The notes under the pieces are model-generated. The model did no database searches and was not told the DNA's origin. It saw only the letters and a program-made list of their open reading frames with translations. DNA of 51,561 bases from a virus (taxonomy: Duplodnaviria; Caudoviricetes). This document shows, piece by piece, positions 236 through 43,744 of the stretch (positions are counted from its first letter, which is position 1; each line of letters begins with the position of its first letter). A program made the translations under genes and the position numbers. The stretch is from IMG/VR virus record IMGVR_UViG_3300037245_001095, positions 1 to 51,561 of that record; one strand, given 5' to 3'.

Positions 236-1843
236 TTGGCAATATCAGAATTACATCTAAACGATTTTAATAAATTGTTTACAGGCAATACATTAAATTA
301 TGGTAGACATACTTACTCTTTTAACAAAGAAGGCGAAAAAGAAAAAGGTGGTAATAGTCTTATTAAAGATAAACATTTGACTATGACGCCATATAAGAGT
401 CACCTTGAAGGTAAAACAGGGCTCGGTATTATACCAATAACAGAAAAAAATGAATGTAAATTTGCAGTAATTGATGTTGATATTTACAATAAAGATTTCA
501 AGCCATACCTGGATGCTATAGAAAATAATAATTTTCCGTTGGTACCTTTCTATAGTAAGTCAGGTGGCTTGCATATCTATCTCTTTTTCAGACAACATGT
601 CAAAGCTAAAGAGGCTATTAAACGAATAACACAAATGTCAAGAATACTTGGCATTACATTACTCGTTAAACAAGTTAAAAATGAAAAAGTAGAAATATAT
701 CCAAAGCAAACAAAACTGGCACCAGGTCAAAAAGGTAGTTGGATAAATATACCATACTTTAATGCAGAGAAAACAAAACAAGGTCTTGCTAAGAATGGTA
801 GTATGTTAAGCTTGGGAGAAGCAATTGTACATATCAAAAATAAACTTACTACAATCGAAGAATTAGATGATTTATTAAAAGATATGCCATATAATGATGC
901 ACCACCATGTTTACAAACATTAAGTTTATTGAATATGCTTGGTGAAAACAATGGTAGAAATAATTATCTATTTTCATTCGGCGTTTATTTAAAAAAGAAA
1001 GATGAAGATTATTTTGAACAAGAAGTAATGATGATAAATGAGCAATTACCTGTACCATTAGAACAGACTGAAATTGAGAGTACAATATTATCATCACTGA
1101 GAAGAAAAGACTATACATACATGTGTACAACAGCACCTTGTGTAGATTTTTGTGATAAAAAAGTATGTCAAAAAAGAGAATATGGCATAGGCAAATCTGG
1201 TGGTTATTTCACTAATTTAATATTTGGTAAAATGACACAATATAATGCAGCCTCACCATACTATGAATGGCAAGTTAAAGGTCAAGATGTTTCTGATTTT
1301 AAATTATTGCGTTTTAAAAATGAAGATGAAATAATAAAGCAAGATGTATTTTTACGTTTATGTTTTAGAGAACTTCATTTTTTACCATTTAAAATGAAAC
1401 AGGTAGAATGGTTTAAGTTAGTTAATCAAGCATTAACTGAATTAGTAGCAGTCAGTGTTGATCATAGTGATGATACTTCACCACTTATGAGATTTCATAA
1501 TTTATTCCTTGACTTCTTGACAACAAGAGCATTAGCCACTACGCGTGATCAAATATTAGGTAAACAAGTATTATTTGATGTAGAGAATGAAAAGTATTAC
1601 TTTAGAAATAAAGATCTTTTAGAATATCTTTATGACTATAAAAACTTTAGACTATTTAGTTCTGCAGAAATACATGGTCTATTGAGAGATATAGGTGTAC
1701 GTAATAAAGTTATAAGGTCTGAAACAAATAAACAGATTCGTGTGGCTGAAGTATTACAAAAAAATATAATATTAGAGAACATGCAAGAAGATAAGGTTTT
1801 TGATGTTGAATTTAAGTCATATGATGACAATGAACAATTTTAA
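236..1843 (+). CDS. AEP-family primase/primase-polymerase with PriCT-like C-terminal region
   Basis: AVIDVD (motif I) and SKSGGLHIY (motif II); PPCL...GRNNYLF PriCT-like segment; Cys cluster; TTG start after GAGGT RBS. Confidence 0.85.
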   Translation: MAISELHLNDFNKLFTGNTLNYGRHTYSFNKEGEKEKGGNSLIKDKHLTMTPYKSHLEGKTGLGIIPITEKNECKFAVIDVDIYNKDFKPYLDAIENNNFPLVPFYSKSGGLHIYLFFRQHVKAKEAIKRITQMSRILGITLLVKQVKNEKVEIYPKQTKLAPGQKGSWINIPYFNAEKTKQGLAKNGSMLSLGEAIVHIKNKLTTIEELDDLLKDMPYNDAPPCLQTLSLLNMLGENNGRNNYLFSFGVYLKKKDEDYFEQEVMMINEQLPVPLEQTEIESTILSSLRRKDYTYMCTTAPCVDFCDKKVCQKREYGIGKSGGYFTNLIFGKMTQYNAASPYYEWQVKGQDVSDFKLLRFKNEDEIIKQDVFLRLCFRELHFLPFKMKQVEWFKLVNQALTELVAVSVDHSDDTSPLMRFHNLFLDFLTTRALATTRDQILGKQVLFDVENEKYYFRNKDLLEYLYDYKNFRLFSSAEIHGLLRDIGVRNKVIRSETNKQIRVAEVLQKNIILENMQEDKVFDVEFKSYDDNEQF

Positions 1844-3279: not shown

Positions 3280-3730
3280 AGGTGTAGACGGAACAGGAAA
3301 AACAACAAGAGCTAAAGAATTTCCAAGAATATATACAGGTCATTATGATTATATACATAATCATGATAAAACAAGAAAACCTGTTGATATAGAAAGTGAA
3401 GTGACAAAGGAAATGTTACTAATGACATATTGTGATAAGATTTTATTTGATCGCAGTTATATTATATCAGAATATATTTATTCTAAAGTTCTAAGAAGAG
3501 AAACTCCCGTGACACTTGATTATGTCAAAGCTCTTATTGAATTGATAAACTTAAGAAGTCATACAGTTAATTTATTTGTTTTTAAGGACAGAGATAAATT
3601 GATTCTTAAAGATGAAGATAGCAAATTACCGTTCATTGAATTGAATAATGCTTATCTACAATTGTTTGATATTGATGTAAAAGTTGAAAGAATGGCAGTT
3701 GTAATTATTGATGATAGGAGTCCAATATGA
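3263..3730 (+). CDS. thymidylate/dNMP kinase-like P-loop protein
   Basis: IIFEGVDGTGKTT P-loop and LFDRSYIISEYIY; adjacent to thyX. Confidence 0.75.
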   Translation: MSIIFEGVDGTGKTTRAKEFPRIYTGHYDYIHNHDKTRKPVDIESEVTKEMLLMTYCDKILFDRSYIISEYIYSKVLRRETPVTLDYVKALIELINLRSHTVNLFVFKDRDKLILKDEDSKLPFIELNNAYLQLFDIDVKVERMAVVIIDDRSPI

Positions 3731-4326
3731 AAATGATTAAACAATATATTAAAGTAATCACACCAGAAAGTGAATATAAAGTATTCGCCTCGCGTATAGA
3801 GAATATCGCACGGGTCTGTTATCAGTCAGCTGGTAAAGATGTAACATCAAAATTTATTCGTAGCTTAATTAAAAGTGGTCATGAGGCAATGATTGAACAT
3901 AGTAGTTTATCAATTTCATTTATCACTGATCGTGCTACAGCAAATGCTCTTGTAAGACATAGACATTGTTCCTTTGCACAGGAGAGTACACACTATATCA
4001 ATTATGCCAAAAAGTATGGTGATCTTACTTGTATAAGACAAGTAGCAATTGAAGATCAAGAGACTTTTGAATCAATGTTATATGACATTGAAAGTGATTA
4101 TATTAAATTGAGTAACGAAAAGTCAAAAGCTAAAAGAGCTTTATTACCATTAGCCTTTAAGACTGAGTTGGTTATCACAACAAACTTAAGTGAATGGAGA
4201 TCAATCTTGAAACGAAGAACTTCAAAGAAAGCTCATCCTCAAATGCAAGATATTATGCTTAAGGTACTTGATTGGTTTAAACAAGAATTACCAATATTTG
4301 TGGAGGATATAGATGCAGAAAGATAA
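3727..4326 (+). CDS. thyX: FAD-dependent thymidylate synthase
   Basis: ThyX signature RHRHCSFAQES, plus GHEAMIEH and TNLSEWR...AHPQM. Confidence 0.93.
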   Translation: MKMIKQYIKVITPESEYKVFASRIENIARVCYQSAGKDVTSKFIRSLIKSGHEAMIEHSSLSISFITDRATANALVRHRHCSFAQESTHYINYAKKYGDLTCIRQVAIEDQETFESMLYDIESDYIKLSNEKSKAKRALLPLAFKTELVITTNLSEWRSILKRRTSKKAHPQMQDIMLKVLDWFKQELPIFVEDIDAER

Positions 4327-4779: not shown

Positions 4780-5148
4780 ATGGGAACTTTAGTTAAGTAC
4801 TGTGAAACTTGTAATAAACAATTTATGCCTTATCGACCATTTCAAAAATATCATAGTGATAAATGTAGACTTATTGCTCATGAAAAAGAATATCGATATG
4901 TAAGAAAACCAGACGTCACGAGACAATGCAGACAATGTGGTACGGAATTTGTAACAAATAATAAGAAGAAGGTATTTCATAATACAAAATGTCAAAAGGA
5001 ATATCAAATTGAAAATCGAAATAATCTGGAACCTGATGAAAGAACTTGTGCATACTGTGGTGATAAGTTCGAGACAACCCATCATGCCAAAAAATATTGT
5101 CACACAGACTGTTATGATGAAGCCAAGAAAGAGAGGGAAAAGAAATGA
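4780..5148 (+). CDS. triple zinc-finger protein (CxxC...C/HxxxC repeats)
   Basis: Three units: CETC..HSDKC, CRQC..HNTKC, CAYC..CHTDC; GGAGG RBS. Confidence 0.7.
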   Translation: MGTLVKYCETCNKQFMPYRPFQKYHSDKCRLIAHEKEYRYVRKPDVTRQCRQCGTEFVTNNKKKVFHNTKCQKEYQIENRNNLEPDERTCAYCGDKFETTHHAKKYCHTDCYDEAKKEREKK

Positions 5149-8618: not shown

Positions 8619-9722
8619 TTAGTCAAGAACAAGATGCCCCATAATCTTAATACGATATCTACCTAATAGTTGAAGATCATCCTGAGTATATTTAACAAAT
8701 GAATCTAATGTTGAGCCATCTAATTCTATAACAACACCAAGTTTATCTTCACCACCTGAAGTCTTTCTTACAGCTAATGAGAAATCTCCACCACCACCTG
8801 AACGAGTTATATATTCAACGTCGTATGCAGAAGCTCTCCAACCACCATTGTCAAATACAGCTAAAGCATAATATGCAAAAACAGGATTTTCAAAACCAAA
8901 ATATTCACCATTTGTTAAAGCTGTTAAATTACCAAATTTACCATCGTCACCGCCAGAAGTCATAATCATATCAATAATCATTCTTGTTAAATGCCACTTT
9001 TGACCATTAGGTGGATATGTTATAAATTTAATTGGTGAAGCAAAGGTACCTAAAATAGCCATATTAACATTGACACGTTTTGAAAACTCAACTTTAGCAG
9101 AGTCTAAGTCATGGGCAATTGGTGGTGTTATTGATATATCATTACCATCAACATCTACAACAGCATGCTGACTAAATCTTGTACCAAGAACTCCAGGTAA
9201 TGAGGTATCAACATAATGTATATTTAGATATTCTTTATTTGGTGCAGCGAGTACACTGAACCCGTGTCCAGCTTCAAGAGTTAATATATTTGTACCTCTT
9301 GTTGGTGTTCCAGTAATAACAATATCATTTAATTCTTGATACATAAAATGTTCAACTGAAGGTGTTGATTGATCTTGTCTATTAGTATCAACATTATTAT
9401 GAACAGTACCAATAATAATCTTACCAGTATCAGCTGAATCTCTATCACTATTTGCACACATAATATAAATATCAATAGGTTCTGACGATTTAAATTCTTC
9501 ACTCTGACTTAAGTCAAACATTCGTACTGCTTCATCAGGTATGACACCTGCATCAGTATCAGTTGGCTTTGTTGGAATATCAGGAGCATCTTCACCAGAT
9601 AAGCGATATGTATAATAATAGTATACAGTACTGATTGCTGAACTTAATTTTATACCTTTAATCCCTGATGCAATCTTTACCCATTGCCATTCAGGTATGT
9701 TTGTTACTACTGGATTTGCCAT
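8619..9722 (-). CDS. hypothetical beta-rich protein, last gene of the late operon (possible virion protein)
   Basis: 367-aa ORF with AAGGAG RBS; no motif recognised. Confidence 0.7.
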   Translation of the reverse strand: MANPVVTNIPEWQWVKIASGIKGIKLSSAISTVYYYYTYRLSGEDAPDIPTKPTDTDAGVIPDEAVRMFDLSQSEEFKSSEPIDIYIMCANSDRDSADTGKIIIGTVHNNVDTNRQDQSTPSVEHFMYQELNDIVITGTPTRGTNILTLEAGHGFSVLAAPNKEYLNIHYVDTSLPGVLGTRFSQHAVVDVDGNDISITPPIAHDLDSAKVEFSKRVNVNMAILGTFASPIKFITYPPNGQKWHLTRMIIDMIMTSGGDDGKFGNLTALTNGEYFGFENPVFAYYALAVFDNGGWRASAYDVEYITRSGGGGDFSLAVRKTSGGEDKLGVVIELDGSTLDSFVKYTQDDLQLLGRYRIKIMGHLVLD

Positions 9723-9743: not shown

Positions 9744-10229
9744 TTAAAAAACCTTAAACGCAATTATAGTAAGACCAATTGCTGATATAATGCTAATCAC
9801 TAATCCAATATTATTCTTCAGTTCTGCTTTCTTTATTTCTCTGTCTATATCCAAAAGCGACGTCCTCAAGTCTGATACTGAGCCTAATAATCTGTCGCCC
9901 GTATTCTTCAAGCTGACGTACTCCTCCAGTAATTTGCTCGAGACTGTTGCTAAGCCATTCGCTTTCTGCTCTAACGAACTCAGCAGTCGATTTACTTTCT
10001 GTTGAAATGTCGCTAGCCGAGCTTCCAACTGTGGCAACTTTATCAATAAATCTATTAACGTCAGTTGTGTATTGGTTGATAAGACGTTCAACTCCAGTGA
10101 AATCTCCCCAAGCTCCATTGTAAGTTCCGCGTATGTTGGCAACATTGGGTCTGCCGATAGCATACCAACAAATACCAAGGACAAAAGTAGTAAGCAGAAT
10201 AGTAATAAGATATTTCTTAAACATTTCAT
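9744..10229 (-). CDS. spanin-like protein: signal peptide, coiled coil, C-terminal TM helix
   Basis: Hydrophobic N-terminus ending LSA-DP, Leu heptads, C-terminal IGLVISIISAIGLTIIAF; follows the holin. Confidence 0.65.
   Translation of the reverse strand: MKCLRNILLLFCLLLLSLVFVGMLSADPMLPTYAELTMELGEISLELNVLSTNTQLTLIDLLIKLPQLEARLATFQQKVNRLLSSLEQKANGLATVSSKLLEEYVSLKNTGDRLLGSVSDLRTSLLDIDREIKKAELKNNIGLVISIISAIGLTIIAFKVF
9811..10224 (-). CDS. nested i-spanin-like protein: N-terminal TM anchor and coiled coil
   Basis: 137-codon frame fully inside 9744..10229; MFKKYLITILLTTFVLGICWYAIG anchor; shares the GGAG RBS. Confidence 0.6.
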   Translation of the reverse strand: MFKKYLITILLTTFVLGICWYAIGRPNVANIRGTYNGAWGDFTGVERLINQYTTDVNRFIDKVATVGSSASDISTESKSTAEFVRAESEWLSNSLEQITGGVRQLEEYGRQIIRLSIRLEDVAFGYRQRNKESRTEE

Positions 10230-10426
10230 TTCTTCTCCGACGATTTTCTCATATCATTTATAAGTGTAATCACACCTTTGACAACATTCACACCAAGATA
10301 AACCCAAGCTATTGTAACCCATTGATCACCTGTTATTAATTTTAAAAACAAACCAACTGTTGCTATTGTAAATACAATAAACTTTTTAGGCAACACTTTG
10401 TTAAAAAAGAAGTCTATATTTTTCAT
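10226..10426 (-). CDS. holin (2 TM, basic C-tail)
   Basis: 66 aa, two hydrophobic segments, charged C-terminus, in the lysis cassette. Confidence 0.7.
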   Translation of the reverse strand: MKNIDFFFNKVLPKKFIVFTIATVGLFLKLITGDQWVTIAWVYLGVNVVKGVITLINDMRKSSEKK

Positions 10427-10429
10427 AAT

Positions 10430-10873
10430 TTAATCCTCAATAAATATATATCTGTAATCAATAATACGACCAATTCGAGCTGTTTTTGAACCGTATTGTG
10501 AATAAGAATCAAAGGTCACATTGTCATTAAGAGCAACAATAACAAAATGTTCAACTACTTTATTACGTTCTGTGACACGTCTGAATCTTGCAATACGGTA
10601 CATCCATTTATCATCTTTTTTAACACGTTTGCCATAGACTTTTTTACCCATCTGACCACTTGTGATATGTAGAACCCCGGCCACGGCACCTTTAATCATT
10701 GTAACTTCTTCACCAACAAGTCCAACATTTCGACATAAGGTATAGACATTATTAACATCAGAAACTGACAAGCTAAGTCCAGATTTAAGTTCATATAATC
10801 TTGTGACGTCTAAAAAATAACATCCCCATTCTGCTAAATCAGGATGTATACCATCTGTTTTTTGATAAATCAT
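10430..10873 (-). CDS. DUF261-like / papain-fold cysteine peptidase, candidate endolysin
   Basis: Q...WGCYF...EHFVIV...FDS pattern (putative Cys-His-Asp triad); lies between two holin-like genes. Confidence 0.55.
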   Translation of the reverse strand: MIYQKTDGIHPDLAEWGCYFLDVTRLYELKSGLSLSVSDVNNVYTLCRNVGLVGEEVTMIKGAVAGVLHITSGQMGKKVYGKRVKKDDKWMYRIARFRRVTERNKVVEHFVIVALNDNVTFDSYSQYGSKTARIGRIIDYRYIFIED

Positions 10874-11163
10874 TTTTTCATACCTCTCTCAACAAAATAG
10901 TTAATCATACGAGTTGACATTGCTTCAACATTCTCAACAGAGGCCCTAAGACTGATGACATTTAATTCAATCTCATGATCTTTTTCTTTAAGTAATTCAA
11001 CATCTTCTCGTAGTTTAGTTAGTGTGCTAATCTCTACTGTTATTTGTACAAGCTTTTCATCCACTTTTTTAGACCGCCTTGAACTCGATATTGTAAACCA
11101 TATTACAATAATCAAAGCAAGTGCCCCGGGTCCATAGTTGTATAATACTGCAATAAAGTCCAT
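10870..11163 (-). CDS. holin-like membrane protein (N-terminal TM and coiled coil)
   Basis: GPGALALIIVIWFTI TM segment followed by heptad repeats; first gene of the lysis cassette. Confidence 0.55.
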   Translation of the reverse strand: MDFIAVLYNYGPGALALIIVIWFTISSSRRSKKVDEKLVQITVEISTLTKLREDVELLKEKDHEIELNVISLRASVENVEAMSTRMINYFVERGMKK

Positions 11164-14516: not shown

Positions 14517-15077
14517 TCACTCCATTATTGCAATCGACTTTACATTACTACCATCATATATCAACAATGGTGTTTCTCCAGCTTCCATTAAAGGTATTGC
14601 TCTTATAGCTGTTCCATTATAGTATCTTAATTTTTGATTTGTTAAATCTGCCTGATCAGCAATAATTACTGTACCATCTGCTAATTTCATTTGTAATTTA
14701 CCAGATGAGTCATAGCCCATTGCAATCATACTATATGTTTGAGTAAAACCATTATGTGACGCATCTACTTGAATCACGTGACAAACAACTCGTATTCCTT
14801 GTATTTTTTTACCAAGAGGATAAGTATAAGTTTTCTTGCCAGATTGGTCTGTAGAACCTAAGTATATCCAATTGTCTTCATATTTATAATAAAAATCCTG
14901 TGAAGCATCATTAGCTTCAAGACCACTCTGGGCTGCAATAAATGAAACATAATCTACATTGTGTGCAATTGCAAATGTTATAGTCCCTGTAGCAATATCG
15001 TCATAAGGGTTAGGAGCAGTTGGTCCAACATATGCATATGAATTATCATCACCATCATTTCCATAGGTTGGACCCAT
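14517..15077 (-). CDS. minor tail protein (5' end uncertain; possible frameshift from ATG 15112)
   Basis: 186-aa ORF with C-terminal LRYYNG..IPL...PLLIYDG repeats; weak RBS at 15077. Confidence 0.6.
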   Translation of the reverse strand: MGPTYGNDGDDNSYAYVGPTAPNPYDDIATGTITFAIAHNVDYVSFIAAQSGLEANDASQDFYYKYEDNWIYLGSTDQSGKKTYTYPLGKKIQGIRVVCHVIQVDASHNGFTQTYSMIAMGYDSSGKLQMKLADGTVIIADQADLTNQKLRYYNGTAIRAIPLMEAGETPLLIYDGSNVKSIAIME

Positions 15078-15235
15078 ACTATAACTGGTGCTCGGGCATA
15101 ATCTGTCGCCATATCTATATCCTCTTCATCTTCAACCTTAATTTCATTATATATAAAAGTATTTATATCTACTCTATTATTACAAGATACAATTAACATA
15201 CTTAATATAAATAAAAACCTAAACTTCTTAAGCAT
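14978..15235 (-). CDS. lipoprotein-signal ORF overlapping the downstream tail gene
   Basis: MLKKFRFLFILSMLIVS-C lipobox; the C-terminal half looks like off-frame read-through. Confidence 0.4.
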   Translation of the reverse strand: MLKKFRFLFILSMLIVSCNNRVDINTFIYNEIKVEDEEDIDMATDYARAPVIVWVQPMEMMVMIIHMHMLDQLLLTLMTILLQGL

Positions 15236-41588: not shown

Positions 41589-42227
41589 GTGAGAAGGAAA
41601 GTGAAGTCTGAGACCTTGATTACATTTTATGCAATACTGTTAATAATCATTATAATATTATTAAGTATGCTATGGGGTAATAAGATAGCATTAACAAATG
41701 TATTTGAACAACTTGATAATACGAAACAATTAGCCTATGACTTAACAAATAAGATTAGAATTATGGAACTTGATGAACAATTTGATTATCTTAATCCAAT
41801 TCATATTGATGATTTTGTCAGGCCAACATCACCTTTTGGTATACGAACCGTGCCAGATGAAATATATACAGGTGGTGCTACTGAACGAATGCACGGTGGT
41901 GTTGATCTGGTTGGCACGTGGCATGCTAGAGTGGTTGCTTCAGCTAATGGAAGAGTAATTGATAAATGGTTTGTTCCTGATGGAAAATATAGAAATGGTC
42001 ATGCAACGTTTGGTGGTTATATTCGTATCTTACATATTGATGGAAGTATAACAGGTTATGCACATCTAAGTGCTATATATGTACGAGAGGGTGATATAGT
42101 GAGCCAGGGAGATGTGATTGGACGAACCGGTAATACAGGTTTATCAACCGGTGACCATTTACATTTCAGTCTGGAATTAACTAAAGATGACTTTGTTAAT
42201 CCATTAAGCCATATTAAATTGAGGTAA
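41589..42227 (+). CDS. M23-family metallopeptidase with N-terminal TM anchor
   Basis: TSPFGIR, HGGVD, YAHLS, GDVIG..GNTGLSTGDHLHF. Confidence 0.92.
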   Translation: MRRKVKSETLITFYAILLIIIIILLSMLWGNKIALTNVFEQLDNTKQLAYDLTNKIRIMELDEQFDYLNPIHIDDFVRPTSPFGIRTVPDEIYTGGATERMHGGVDLVGTWHARVVASANGRVIDKWFVPDGKYRNGHATFGGYIRILHIDGSITGYAHLSAIYVREGDIVSQGDVIGRTGNTGLSTGDHLHFSLELTKDDFVNPLSHIKLR

Positions 42228-43351: not shown

Positions 43352-43744
43352 ATGAAAAAGATTTTAAGTTTGGCATTATTGGTATTAGTAATTATGTTGT
43401 TTGCTAGCTGTAGTTTGATAGAAACTACTGATGCAGATGTCGCATCCTACAATTTATCTAAAGATGCTGACATGTTCAGGATCAATCGAAGAGTTGTATT
43501 CTATAATGGGATTACTGATGCATATATCTTGTCTATAGAGGGAAGAAGTTCTGTAGAGTTCTTTCCTGATAAGTTTGTTGTTACTGTTAAAACAGGCCCT
43601 AATGAATACAAGAAGCATTACCTTGGTAGAGCTGATAATGTTTTCCCTTTTGTTGAACAGCTTGATGCCGTACCTGTTGATGTATATCATTATAAAGTAA
43701 TCTTTAAGCCTTCAGTAATTATACCAGATATAGAAATTAAATGA
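43352..43744 (+). CDS. phage lipoprotein
   Basis: Signal peptide with LFAS-C lipobox; ADVASYNLSKDAD...RRVVFYNGITD motif, which I recall from other phage lipoproteins. Confidence 0.8.
   Translation: MKKILSLALLVLVIMLFASCSLIETTDADVASYNLSKDADMFRINRRVVFYNGITDAYILSIEGRSSVEFFPDKFVVTVKTGPNEYKKHYLGRADNVFPFVEQLDAVPVDVYHYKVIFKPSVIIPDIEIK

Follow-up and report, generated by a model that had tools for sequence, protein, structure and literature searches.

A probable dual-coding pair of coiled-coil membrane proteins in a putative phage lysis cassette

Can one stretch of phage DNA encode two long membrane proteins in different frames, and could such a pair act as a spanin in host lysis? To our knowledge, every described case of nested lysis genes combines an inner-membrane protein with a short lipoprotein. 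The question is raised by two overlapping ORFs, A and B, found in the ORF listing of a 51,561-nt stretch of viral DNA (the whole of which is called the window below), on the minus strand between positions 9744 and 10229. Gene A (9744..10229, minus strand) encodes 161 amino acids. Gene B (9811..10224, minus strand) encodes 137 amino acids, lies entirely within A and is the frame on record for the contig; it is the +2 frame of A, so that A is the +1 frame of B.

The two ORFs share a translation-start region (10222..10238, minus strand) composed, in minus-strand order, of GGAG (10238-10235), AAGAA, the ATG of A (10229-10227), AA and the ATG of B (10224-10222). The spacing from GGAG is 5 nt to A's ATG and 10 nt to B's ATG, the two ATGs being 5 nt apart, and the TGA of the upstream gene overlaps the ATG of A (ATGA). 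The initial annotation of this DNA had described a nested pair with starts 5 nt apart behind a single ribosome-binding site, and the ORFs and the GGAG were seen as claimed. Its remark that the overlap is richer in G+C and CpG also holds: the GC content is 0.406 and the CpG observed/expected ratio 0.96, against 0.336 and 0.51 for the whole window, and among 1023 window segments of 414 nt only 4.3% reach the GC content and 1.3% the CpG count of the overlap.

Conservation of the two reading frames

The comparison set of 10 loci comprised the window and nine related loci, which lie on viral, metagenome or genome contigs. Seven loci were fetched by B-family patterns and two further new ones by A-family patterns; these scans used the narrower alignments, the broader A1, A2 (genome contigs) and A4 being too divergent. 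Frame A was open in all 7 loci fetched through B and, reciprocally, frame B was open in both new loci fetched through A. Across B, the frame of A contains 0 stops in 10/10 loci and the third frame 14 to 20 (18 in the window). In a shuffle test, one protein was held fixed while its codons were redrawn from the codon usage of the window, 1000 times per locus. The other frame was open in 0/1000 of these synonymous redraws, in either direction and at all 10 loci, for an expected 9.0-16.5 stops. The +1 frame of 53 control genes of the window (13,180 codons) contained 0.079 stops per codon; none of its 6399 windows of 133 codons was stop-free and its longest stop-free run was 92 codons.

Identity between loci was calculated in each frame and compared with a null in which that frame is a by-product of the other. 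It reached 0.481 in the A frame against a null of 0.274 (sd 0.008), and 0.377 in the B frame against 0.210 (sd 0.007), the z-scores being somewhat inflated because the null assumes independent sequences whereas A identities within pairs go up to 72%. Between the window and its 8 most distant relatives, the values were 0.349 against 0.204 for A and 0.281 against 0.157 for B. As judged by these comparisons, each product is conserved beyond the constraint exerted by the other frame. Protein identity among the 10 loci is about 41-47% and the mean pairwise identity of gene A is 0.472. The three codon positions of A vary at 0.352/0.335/0.502, the third being the highest, as in a control gene (0.430/0.355/0.593). 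In the tail of A past the stop of B, the mismatches at codon positions 1/2/3 are 0.478/0.398/0.635 (831 codon pairs), again of coding type.

The start region is preserved as well. The ATGAAATG start arrangement is retained in 7 of the 9 complete loci, and the remaining 2 have a 17-nt offset together with a second Shine-Dalgarno-like run preceding the ATG of B. The ATGA overlap with the upstream gene occurs in 8/9 loci. One mRNA region of about 410 nt would then be translated in two frames, A through ATGA coupling to the stop of the upstream gene and B by initiation 5 nt downstream, using the Shine-Dalgarno sequence of A. In phage λ, S105 and S107 are produced from two same-frame starts behind one ribosome-binding site and differ by two residues. 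The present arrangement resembles that of S105/S107 in having starts a few bases apart, a single ribosome-binding site and two membrane proteins as products, but the starts of A and B are in different frames and their products have no sequence in common.

Could a single gene be real, the other frame being a long open frame of compositional or chance origin that yields no product? Gene callers do record one frame per locus (B for the window, A in 2/9 loci), and a codon-usage model prefers B alone by 12.7-37.2 nats in 10/10 loci, seeing B as genome-typical and A as off-frame; permuting the own codons of B also leaves A open in 790, 488 and 383 of 1000 trials at loci L005, L003 and L006, respectively. 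This reading is nevertheless very improbable in view of the conservation of both frames at many standard deviations over the by-product null, the wobble at the third position of A, the membrane-helix tail of A outside B, the ATGA coupling at the start of A, the Shine-Dalgarno run proper to B in two loci and the 16 homologues of B. The initial annotation had taken the two ORFs for real genes, and no interruption of frame B was found in homologues, both frames being open in 10/10 loci. On sequence grounds, the locus is almost certainly a real dual-coding pair in which both frames are conserved genes.

Predicted organisation of proteins A and B

Protein A has two hydrophobic segments according to Kyte-Doolittle profiles in 19-residue windows, 7-25 (score 2.9) and 143-161 (score 2.4). 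The first lies within the putative signal peptide (residues 1-26; 10152..10229, minus strand) delimited from the alignments. G22 is invariant in these alignments, and 10/10 sequences have A or G at position -1 followed by E or D at +1; this conserved G-x-[LA]-x-[AG] / [ED] motif agrees with the proposed signal peptide, which would be cleaved after ...G-M-L-S-A and before D-P. The second segment belongs to the C-terminal membrane helix and basic tail (residues 141-161; 9747..9809, minus strand). This helix is present in 10/10 loci, 67-91 nt beyond the stop of B, and, since it lies almost wholly downstream of that stop, the stretch is not dual-coded. The heptad test counted 32 qualifying 28-residue windows in A for a shuffle mean of 3.8 (2/200 shuffles reach 32), and the AF2 model is all-helical with a pLDDT of 63.2. 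We thus predict for A a Sec signal peptide, a helical coiled coil of about 113 residues facing the periplasm, a C-terminal anchor and a short basic tail, a layout that is unchanged in the 9 related loci.

Protein B has a single N-terminal hydrophobic segment (6-24, score 2.07, same method and window), included in a predicted transmembrane helix (residues 5-24; 10153..10212, minus strand) encoded by the same bases as the signal peptide of A. The 23/23 complete members of the B family have an N-terminal hydrophobic window scoring 1.4-2.63 and no second segment, and residues W20, G24 and R25 are invariant or nearly so. The TGG codon of Trp20 in B forces the GGN codon of Gly22 in A, so that these invariant residues are coupled. 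B yields 18 heptad windows for a shuffle mean of 0.4 in the window (0/200 shuffles reach 18) and 10-41 for shuffle means of 0.2-0.6 in nine loci, where at most 2/200 shuffles match the observed value; its Atlas model is helical with a pLDDT of 0.71. B is therefore predicted to be a type II protein of Rz-like layout, with an N-terminal anchor, a helical coiled coil of about 110 residues and an acidic C-terminus, probably oriented N-in. In both proteins, the hydrophobic segments and the heptad periodicity above shuffles bear out the initial description of two coiled-coil membrane proteins.

The same description mentioned a Cys at both N-termini and no clear lipobox, and in the window Cys indeed occurs at A3, A12 and B19. 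In A, neither of two lipobox patterns was found in any of 9 complete N-termini, and there is no Cys at all in locus L002 and in the partial locus L003; the frequent Cys3 (or Trp3) of A results from the ATG of B falling in the third codon of A (TGN). In the B family, 3/24 members match a lipobox and 6/24 have no Cys.

Homology searches gave little for A: its family searches returned generic coiled coils only, a word-based protein search found nothing, and its "recognition" value in the Atlas was low (1745, for a mark of 2300). For B, phmmer detected 16 full-length distant homologues of 126-153 residues. Among 24 members of the B family, 4 match phrog_739, "Rz-like spanin", weakly (best E-value 2.1e-5), and 1 matches phrog_214, also Rz-like spanin; these matches could stem from the transmembrane and coiled-coil composition, and the window's own B matched no PHROG or Pfam family. 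The word-based search with B returned only B itself. An alignment of a second B subfamily matched nothing in viral contigs, and the frame-A check excludes that subfamily.

A and B appear not to be paralogues of each other (hhalign probability 46%). Structure prediction of a complex between residues 27-140 of A and 25-137 of B scored 0.09, for a mark of 0.32, which is evidence neither for nor against an interaction. ESM Atlas neighbours of both proteins were all at or below 0.80 and had no family, and profile searches of the PDB with the A and B families found only chemoreceptors, tropomyosin, designed bundles and the heptad repeats of fusion proteins. No match was found by blastn of the region against GenBank phages or by tblastn of the A and B proteins of locus L007 against 50,697 GenBank phage records, and single-protein scans of viral contigs with A, B, the neighbouring 147-residue protein and a 367-residue protein recovered no relatives. 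Among sequencing runs, a single DNA run was listed as containing the sequence, perhaps that of the source sample, and no RNA run. A literature search found no account of such a pair, the supplementary tables of PMC6139136, which could list odd cases, being outside that search.

The neighbouring genes and the host

A and B are preceded on the minus strand by three small genes. The first gene of this cassette (10870..11163, minus strand) encodes a 97-residue protein in which an N-terminal membrane helix and a coiled coil are predicted; its family matches are weak only. Analogous ORFs with a transmembrane segment and a coiled coil are found upstream in loci L012, L010 and L005. The second (10430..10873, minus strand) encodes a 147-residue protein with four residues, Q4, C18, H109 and D122, that do not vary among 6 homologues. 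Its AF2 model (pLDDT 83.8) was compared with known structures in a wide VIA-align search, in which about 43 of 50 rows were cysteine peptidases by title; the best matches were the C39 domain of PCAT1 (Z-score 7.5, rmsd 4.1, 120 aligned residues) and staphopain C (Z-score 7.4), a resemblance at the level of the fold, since Z-scores below 8 are middling and may reflect a common arrangement. Foldseek detected nothing in the PDB at an E-value of 0.001 or below, and the word-based search returned the protein itself only. Its score against DUF261 (PF03196), 23.4 bits, is under the gathering cut-off of 26.1, and 2 of the 6 homologues match this family at an E-value of 0.01 or below. From the model and these residues, we regard the protein as a papain-fold (C39-like) cysteine peptidase with Gln, Cys, His and Asp in order, and probably as the endolysin. 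Another candidate lysin is encoded elsewhere in the window, an M23 peptidase at 41589..42227. The third gene (10226..10426, minus strand), whose stop overlaps the start of A, encodes a holin-like 66-residue protein with two predicted membrane helices, which matched no holin or other family in Pfam and PHROG.

This gene order, with a transmembrane/coiled-coil protein, the papain-fold peptidase, a small two-helix membrane protein and A/B last, is conserved. A small transmembrane protein immediately precedes A/B in 8/9 loci and stands one ORF further up in locus L012. In locus L011 the cassette adjoins head genes and is not downstream of tail fibres. The linkage of A/B to the peptidase and to small transmembrane proteins is kept while the flanking genes differ, as fits a lysis cassette moving as a unit, and A/B are likely to belong to such a cassette.

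An adaptation of the pair to a spirochaete envelope had been suggested initially. The only hints in this direction are the sub-threshold DUF261 match and a low-scoring Atlas neighbour, and the suggestion is not supported. The sole locus from a named genome comes from a 3.6-kb contig, in a bin that carries the label Desulfobacterales. Among 201 genomes of the order of that bin, we found the bin's own locus and five weak, partial coiled-coil matches (E-values 1.5e-6 to 8.6e-4), and a search for the papain-like gene in the same bin did not detect it. The best phage matches of TerL are at or below 33% identity and have mixed hosts. Annotation of the remaining genome with Pfam and PHROG gave no host-specific marker, and the literature on DUF261 and on cp32 lysis genes provided nothing usable.

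A candidate spanin-type function

In our view the whole is best explained, with a probability of roughly 0.5, by a lysis module of spanin type that has an unusual partner and is expressed from a dual-coding locus. The cassette would provide holin(s), an endolysin and, as its last element, A/B as the spanin-type module of envelope disruption. A cleavable Sec signal peptide and a C-terminal anchor would make A a type I protein (N-out, C-in). With A of type I and B of type II, two equally long helical domains would extend in the periplasm, attached by opposite ends to the cytoplasmic membrane, where A and B may cooperate. Lysis and spanin function are only inferred, an outer-membrane anchor having been looked for and not found, and for a spanin-equivalent function of A/B the chances fall just short of even.

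B possesses the N-terminal TMD and the helical/coiled-coil periplasmic domain of an i-spanin. No cognate o-spanin was found within, overlapping or next to B: A is the one ORF that overlaps it, and 4.7 kb separate the pair from the closest lipobox ORF of this strand. A has the C-terminal TMD of a u-spanin in 10/10 loci and a lipoprotein signal in 0/9; the lack of a lipobox sets it apart from both o-spanins and u-spanins. The initial annotation was thus right that neither product is a normal lipoprotein o-spanin (lipobox in 0/9 A sequences and 3/24 B sequences). Its proposal of a spanin system stands in part: the pair stands where a spanin would in a probable lysis cassette and 4/24 members of the B family match an Rz-like spanin PHROG, but the proposed membrane fusion is not sustained, both proteins being predicted in the cytoplasmic membrane and an outer-membrane anchor not having been found.

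Like Rz/Rz1 of λ as presented in PMC6139136, A and B are two membrane proteins specified by the same DNA in a +1 frame at the end of the cassette, and B shares with Rz an N-terminal TMD followed by a periplasmic coiled coil. The nesting is inverted, however: the Rz-like gene B lies inside its partner gene A, the overlap comprises all 137 codons of B compared with a short gene of about 60 codons in λ, and A is not a short proline-rich outer-membrane lipoprotein like Rz1. The P2 cassette is similar in layout, combining accessory membrane proteins with an endolysin and closing on a frame-shifted pair, LysB/LysC. There the lysC gene encodes a lipoprotein and has only a partial overlap with lysB (PMC6139136), whereas B is overlapped completely and its partner A is not a lipoprotein. 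The u-spanin gp11 of T1 is, like A, encoded at the cassette end; according to the same source it carries a lipoprotein signal, and its periplasmic domain is mostly beta by prediction, in contrast to A, which has no lipobox, is predicted to be all-helical and is always accompanied by the nested B.

With no lipobox or other outer-membrane anchor visible in either A or B, both are predicted in one membrane, and this anchoring by itself does not explain how two membranes would be spanned or fused. A tentative and rather unlikely answer is that A/B form a lipoprotein-independent spanin, in which type I and type II inner-membrane coiled coils encoded by the same DNA would disrupt the outer membrane by their distal tip. 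That tip would be composed of the mature N-terminus of A and the acidic C-terminus of B, and would reach or destabilise the outer membrane. As far as the text of Kongari et al. 2018 used here extends, a type I inner-membrane protein acting as i-spanin is a conjecture given no example, and the criteria applied there did not consider it. A conforms to this conjecture by its predicted N-out, C-in orientation and its C-terminal TMD; it differs from the conjectured case in that it occurs together with a conventional type II partner and does not take its place; an o-spanin was not identified.

The alternatives retain less weight. A and B might regulate lysis without attacking the outer membrane, for example as an antiholin- or holin-modulating pair that would set its timing by binding, with their periplasmic coiled coils and their membrane helices, the upstream proteins with two or one TM segments. 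Such a role would suit two proteins that are predicted in the cytoplasmic membrane and show no anchor to the outer one, in a cassette containing two other small membrane proteins; Gly, Ala and Thr are abundant in the helix of B, whose G-x-x-x-G-like spacing may mediate helix-helix contacts. We hold it to be unlikely: long heptad-repeat periplasmic domains, a position at the cassette end and a nested +1 frame are marks of spanins and not of known antiholins in the part of PMC6139136 used here, and some relatives of B match Rz-like PHROGs.

A still less probable reading has A and B as real proteins acting outside lysis, in superinfection exclusion, in DNA entry or envelope remodelling, or in virion assembly at the membrane. 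The functions of the cassette genes are known by prediction only, neither A nor the window's B could be assigned to a family, and the cassette of locus L011 stands beside head genes and not after tail fibres, all of which would accord with it; it fits poorly with the persistent linkage of A/B to the papain-fold peptidase and small TM proteins across loci with differing flanks.

Slightly less probable again, an inner-membrane A/B stalk could dock onto a separately encoded outer-membrane lipoprotein to form a three-part spanin. The lipobox scan offered a candidate for the third part, an 85-residue ORF at 14978..15235 on the A/B strand, in the late operon, with a clean lipoprotein signal (…LIVSC). 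Locus L010 has a similar small acidic lipoprotein ORF (412..600) 5' of a tail-fibre gene. Distances of up to about 1 kb between i- and o-spanin genes are reported in the passages of Kongari et al. drawn on here. Small lipoproteins beside receptor-binding genes are, however, known as superinfection-exclusion factors, such as Llp of T5. The 85-residue ORF is also 4.7 kb distant and inside the tail module. In its 3' third it runs into the following gene and resembles off-frame sequence, and the sequence examined of loci L011 and L012 contained no lipoprotein ORF.

Returning to the dual-coding module of spanin type, a complete Rz-like gene inside a longer, differently anchored coiled-coil gene, both selected across divergent phages, widens the range of spanin-type arrangements and offers a definite candidate where phages have been classed as "spanin-less" for want of a lipoprotein. 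The locus also makes a clean test case for dual-coding evolution: the two genes share 133-137 codons, both frames have heptad repeats, and invariant residues of the two proteins are coupled. It is a warning for annotation as well, as public gene calls retain one frame per locus. If the lipoprotein-independent spanin is true, A/B would provide a first instance of the "other topology" spanin conjectured by Kongari et al. Automated annotation would then systematically overlook one gene of the two, and the pair would represent a third route for breaching the outer membrane beside lipoprotein spanins and cationic disruptins.

Layout of the locus and chance of a double open frame

The 51,561 bp record has a GC content of 33.6% and, according to the family annotation of the window, the replication genes are carried by the + strand and the late operon, from terminase to tail fibre, by the - strand. 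A primase (236..1843, +) matching the AEP-TOTE domain (E 1.1e-14) and a ThyX-type thymidylate synthase (3727..4326, +; E 2.1e-31) are encoded on the former. The A/B start region, GGAG-AAGAA-ATG-AA-ATG, lies on the - strand at the end of the late operon. It opens ORF A (161 aa, 9744..10229, -) and ORF B (137 aa, 9811..10224, -), which is entirely comprised within A, A being the +1 frame of B. The overlap has a GC content of 0.406 against 0.336 for the genome and a CpG observed/expected ratio of 0.96 against 0.51, placing it within the top 4.3% and 1.3%, respectively, of 1023 windows of equal size. All the elements listed in the initial annotation (two starts, nested frames, hydrophobic segments, coiled coils and a GC- and CpG-rich overlap) were recovered.

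The stop rate in the +1 frames of 53 control genes of the window was 0.079 per codon; no stop-free stretch was found among 6399 windows of 133 codons, the longest open run being 92 codons. When the B protein was kept fixed and its codons redrawn from genome usage, none of 1000 trials left A open (10.8 stops expected), and the reverse calculation with A fixed left B open in 0 of 1000 (12.9 stops expected). Synonymous redraws gave the same 0/1000 in both directions for each of the 10 loci (the window and nine relatives). As a milder control, only the gene's own codons were permuted: B remained open in 0 to 8 of 1000 permutations and A in 2 up to 790 depending on the locus, the frequent opening of A being expected since codon choice is itself the signal.

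Conservation of both frames among relatives

A word-based protein search returned no match with A and only the self-hit with B, so that B is the public gene call of the window's contig. An exhaustive phmmer search with B yielded 20 proteins at E <= 0.001: the self-hit, 16 homologs matching end to end, with lengths of 126-153 aa and identities of 23-35%, and 3 long proteins, P0004 (1561 aa), P0013 (307 aa) and P0019 (648 aa). The latter were set aside, the central region of B matching them 14, 5 and 5 times, respectively; their Pfam matches contained no qualifying stretch, and they are probably repetitive coiled-coil proteins unrelated to B. The nine related loci were obtained by pattern scans derived from the B-family and A-family alignments. 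B-family patterns retrieved L002/L012, L003 (cut at its 5' end) and L004/L010 from viral contigs and L005 to L008 from metagenome contigs, while A-family patterns retrieved L009 (genome bin) and L011 (viral contigs).

Loci fetched through B carry no prior information on A, and the A frame was open in 7/7 of them; conversely, B was open in both new loci fetched through A. Interruption of B in homologs, which would have spoken against the nested pair, was thus never encountered, both frames being open in 10/10 loci. Across the span of B, the A frame contains 0 stops and the third frame 14 to 20. In the 10 loci, A extends 67-91 nt beyond the stop of B and the overlap GC exceeds that of its own locus.

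A, with a mean pairwise identity of 0.472, is better conserved than B (0.408), and this holds in 33 of 36 pairs. A-frame identity on B-guided columns reached 0.481, the by-product null being 0.274 (sd 0.008), and B-frame identity on A-guided columns 0.377, for a null of 0.210 (sd 0.007). These nulls treat the sequences as independent and a few pairs are close, so that the z-scores are generous, but the gaps are wide. Between the window and its eight complete relatives, which are the most divergent pairs, the values were 0.349 against 0.204 for A and 0.281 against 0.157 for B. Mismatches at A codon positions 1/2/3 were 0.352/0.335/0.502, the third being the most variable as in the neighbouring control gene (0.430/0.355/0.593), and at B codon positions 0.478/0.329/0.331, the first being the most variable. 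The A tail past the stop of B, on which B imposes no constraint, encodes in 10/10 loci a hydrophobic helix whose end is basic, and retains coding-type wobble (0.478/0.398/0.635). Near-invariant Trp20 of B (TGG) shares bases with invariant Gly22 of A (GGN; 10163..10170, - in the window), which means that part of the conservation in one frame is imposed by the other. These comparisons indicate that both proteins are under selection, and we estimate at about 95% the probability that dual coding is real and conserved at this locus. A codon-usage model counts against this: in 10/10 loci it prefers a single frame, B, by 12.7-37.2 nats. This accounts for gene callers mostly retaining B; a recorded gene call for A exists in only 2 of the 9 loci. 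On the reasoning commonly applied to codon usage, B may also have arisen first, with A overprinted on it.

The sequence ATGAAATG is present in 7 of the 9 complete loci. L005 and L009 differ in that A starts 17 nt ahead of B; there, the first codons of A include a second Shine-Dalgarno-like run, rich in purines, just ahead of the B ATG. In 8/9 loci, the A ATG and the stop codon of the upstream gene overlap as ATGA, so that the A start fits translational coupling; the B start fits a ribosome-binding site of its own or the shared one. L012 carries an extra 65-aa ORF (4807..5004, +) with two CxxC pairs, zinc-ribbon-like, between the gene for a small protein with two membrane helices and A/B, and it is the stop of this ORF that overlaps the A ATG. 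Because the B ATG falls in the third codon of A (TGN), residue 3 of A is only Cys or Trp, which accounts for the N-terminal Cys remarked on initially.

Predicted topology of A and B

The window's A has hydrophobic segments at residues 7-25 and 143-161, and B a single one at residues 6-24; heptad periodicity in the central part of both is far above composition shuffles. The N-terminus of A is basic, followed by 17-20 hydrophobic residues and an invariant Gly22, then x-[LA]-x-[AG] and E or D in 10/10 sequences. The signal peptide first proposed for A would fit this motif, from which we infer a site for signal peptidase I. The next stretch, about 113 residues long, is helical and contains a conserved N-S-x-L-T-L-x-D-L...P motif, and the C-terminus is a helix with a Lys/Arg tail. 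The AF2 model of A is all-helical with low confidence (pLDDT 63.2). In B, the N-terminal helix ends in a nearly invariant W20...G24-R25 and precedes a helical stretch of about 110 residues; R127 is invariant and the C-terminal end acidic. A and B are predicted to be bitopic cytoplasmic-membrane proteins, with outward coiled coils equally long and anchored by opposite ends.

No lipobox was found in the A N-termini (0/9), in agreement with the initial annotation. A lipobox-like L-x-G-C at residues 12-15 is a strict match in 3/24 B members and 6/24 have no Cys at all, so that B is not a lipoprotein family; the Cys of this motif is not conserved across it. L-x-G-C at this position, resembling a very short lipoprotein signal, was noted in P0006, P0009, P0010 (= L006), P0012 (= L008), P0003 and L002. 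Neither product is thus a normal lipoprotein o-spanin.

Lipoproteins encoded elsewhere were also considered. A clean lipoprotein signal (…LIVSC|N) is carried by an 85-aa ORF inside the tail module (14978..15235, -) that overlaps the next gene over its 3' third, and L010 has a 62-aa acidic lipoprotein ORF (412..600, +) at a comparable position before the tail-fibre gene. No outer-membrane anchor was found in A or B themselves, and the former ORF is a weak candidate for one; either ORF might encode a lipoprotein that blocks a receptor, or be a remote candidate for an o-spanin. Another lipoprotein signal (…LFASC|S) occurs in a 130-aa protein (43352..43744, +). This protein matches Pfam Phage_VG64 (E 5.3e-46) and phrog_478 'recombination directionality factor' (E 1.9e-45), a label at odds with an exported lipoprotein, and has a homolog in L010 (5730..6110, -).

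Gene neighbourhood and comparison with known spanins

The gene immediately upstream of A/B encodes a small protein with predicted membrane helices in 8/9 loci; in L012, one ORF separates the two. Wherever the upstream sequence extends far enough (6 loci), the small-protein gene follows one for a protein of about 150 aa, homologous between loci, which in 4 loci is itself preceded by a TM and coiled-coil protein. Residues Q4, C18, H109 and D122 of the ~150-aa protein are invariant. The best structural matches of its model, a confident one (pLDDT 83.8), were C39 peptidase domains, staphopains, viral deubiquitinases, cathepsins and pseudomurein endoisopeptidase, with a middling top Z of 7.5 and about 43 of 50 entries being cysteine peptidases by title; Foldseek returned nothing significant with this model. 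Far from this block, among + strand genes, an M23 peptidase (41589..42227, +; Pfam E 1.3e-22) is possibly a second cell-wall hydrolase of the phage. Downstream genes vary between loci. The window encodes directly after A/B a 367-aa acidic protein (8619..9722, -) with no family match and no relatives found in viral contigs, and the gene at its position differs in each related locus.

A regulatory role of A/B, or a role unrelated to lysis, is possible. We read the block as a putative lysis cassette in which A/B occupies the place of the spanins, a reading supported by the matches of B-family members to the Rz-like spanins phrog_739 (4/24) and phrog_214 (1/24); the window's own B matched no PHROG family. 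As outlined by Kongari et al. 2018 (PMC6139136), two-component spanins combine a type II inner-membrane protein and an outer-membrane lipoprotein, and their gene architecture is embedded, overlapped or separated; a lipid box was also required for o- and u-spanins in a later survey (PMC12596118). B has the structural features of an i-spanin, whereas A lacks the lipobox that defines both o- and u-spanins. No description of such a pair was found in full-text searches of the literature. A has instead the predicted type I layout conjectured by Kongari et al. 2018 (PMC6139136), and compared with lambda the nesting is inverted, the Rz-like gene (B) being here the inner one. A spanin-type function, unproven and in our judgement a little short of even odds, is the best available reading of the A/B pair.
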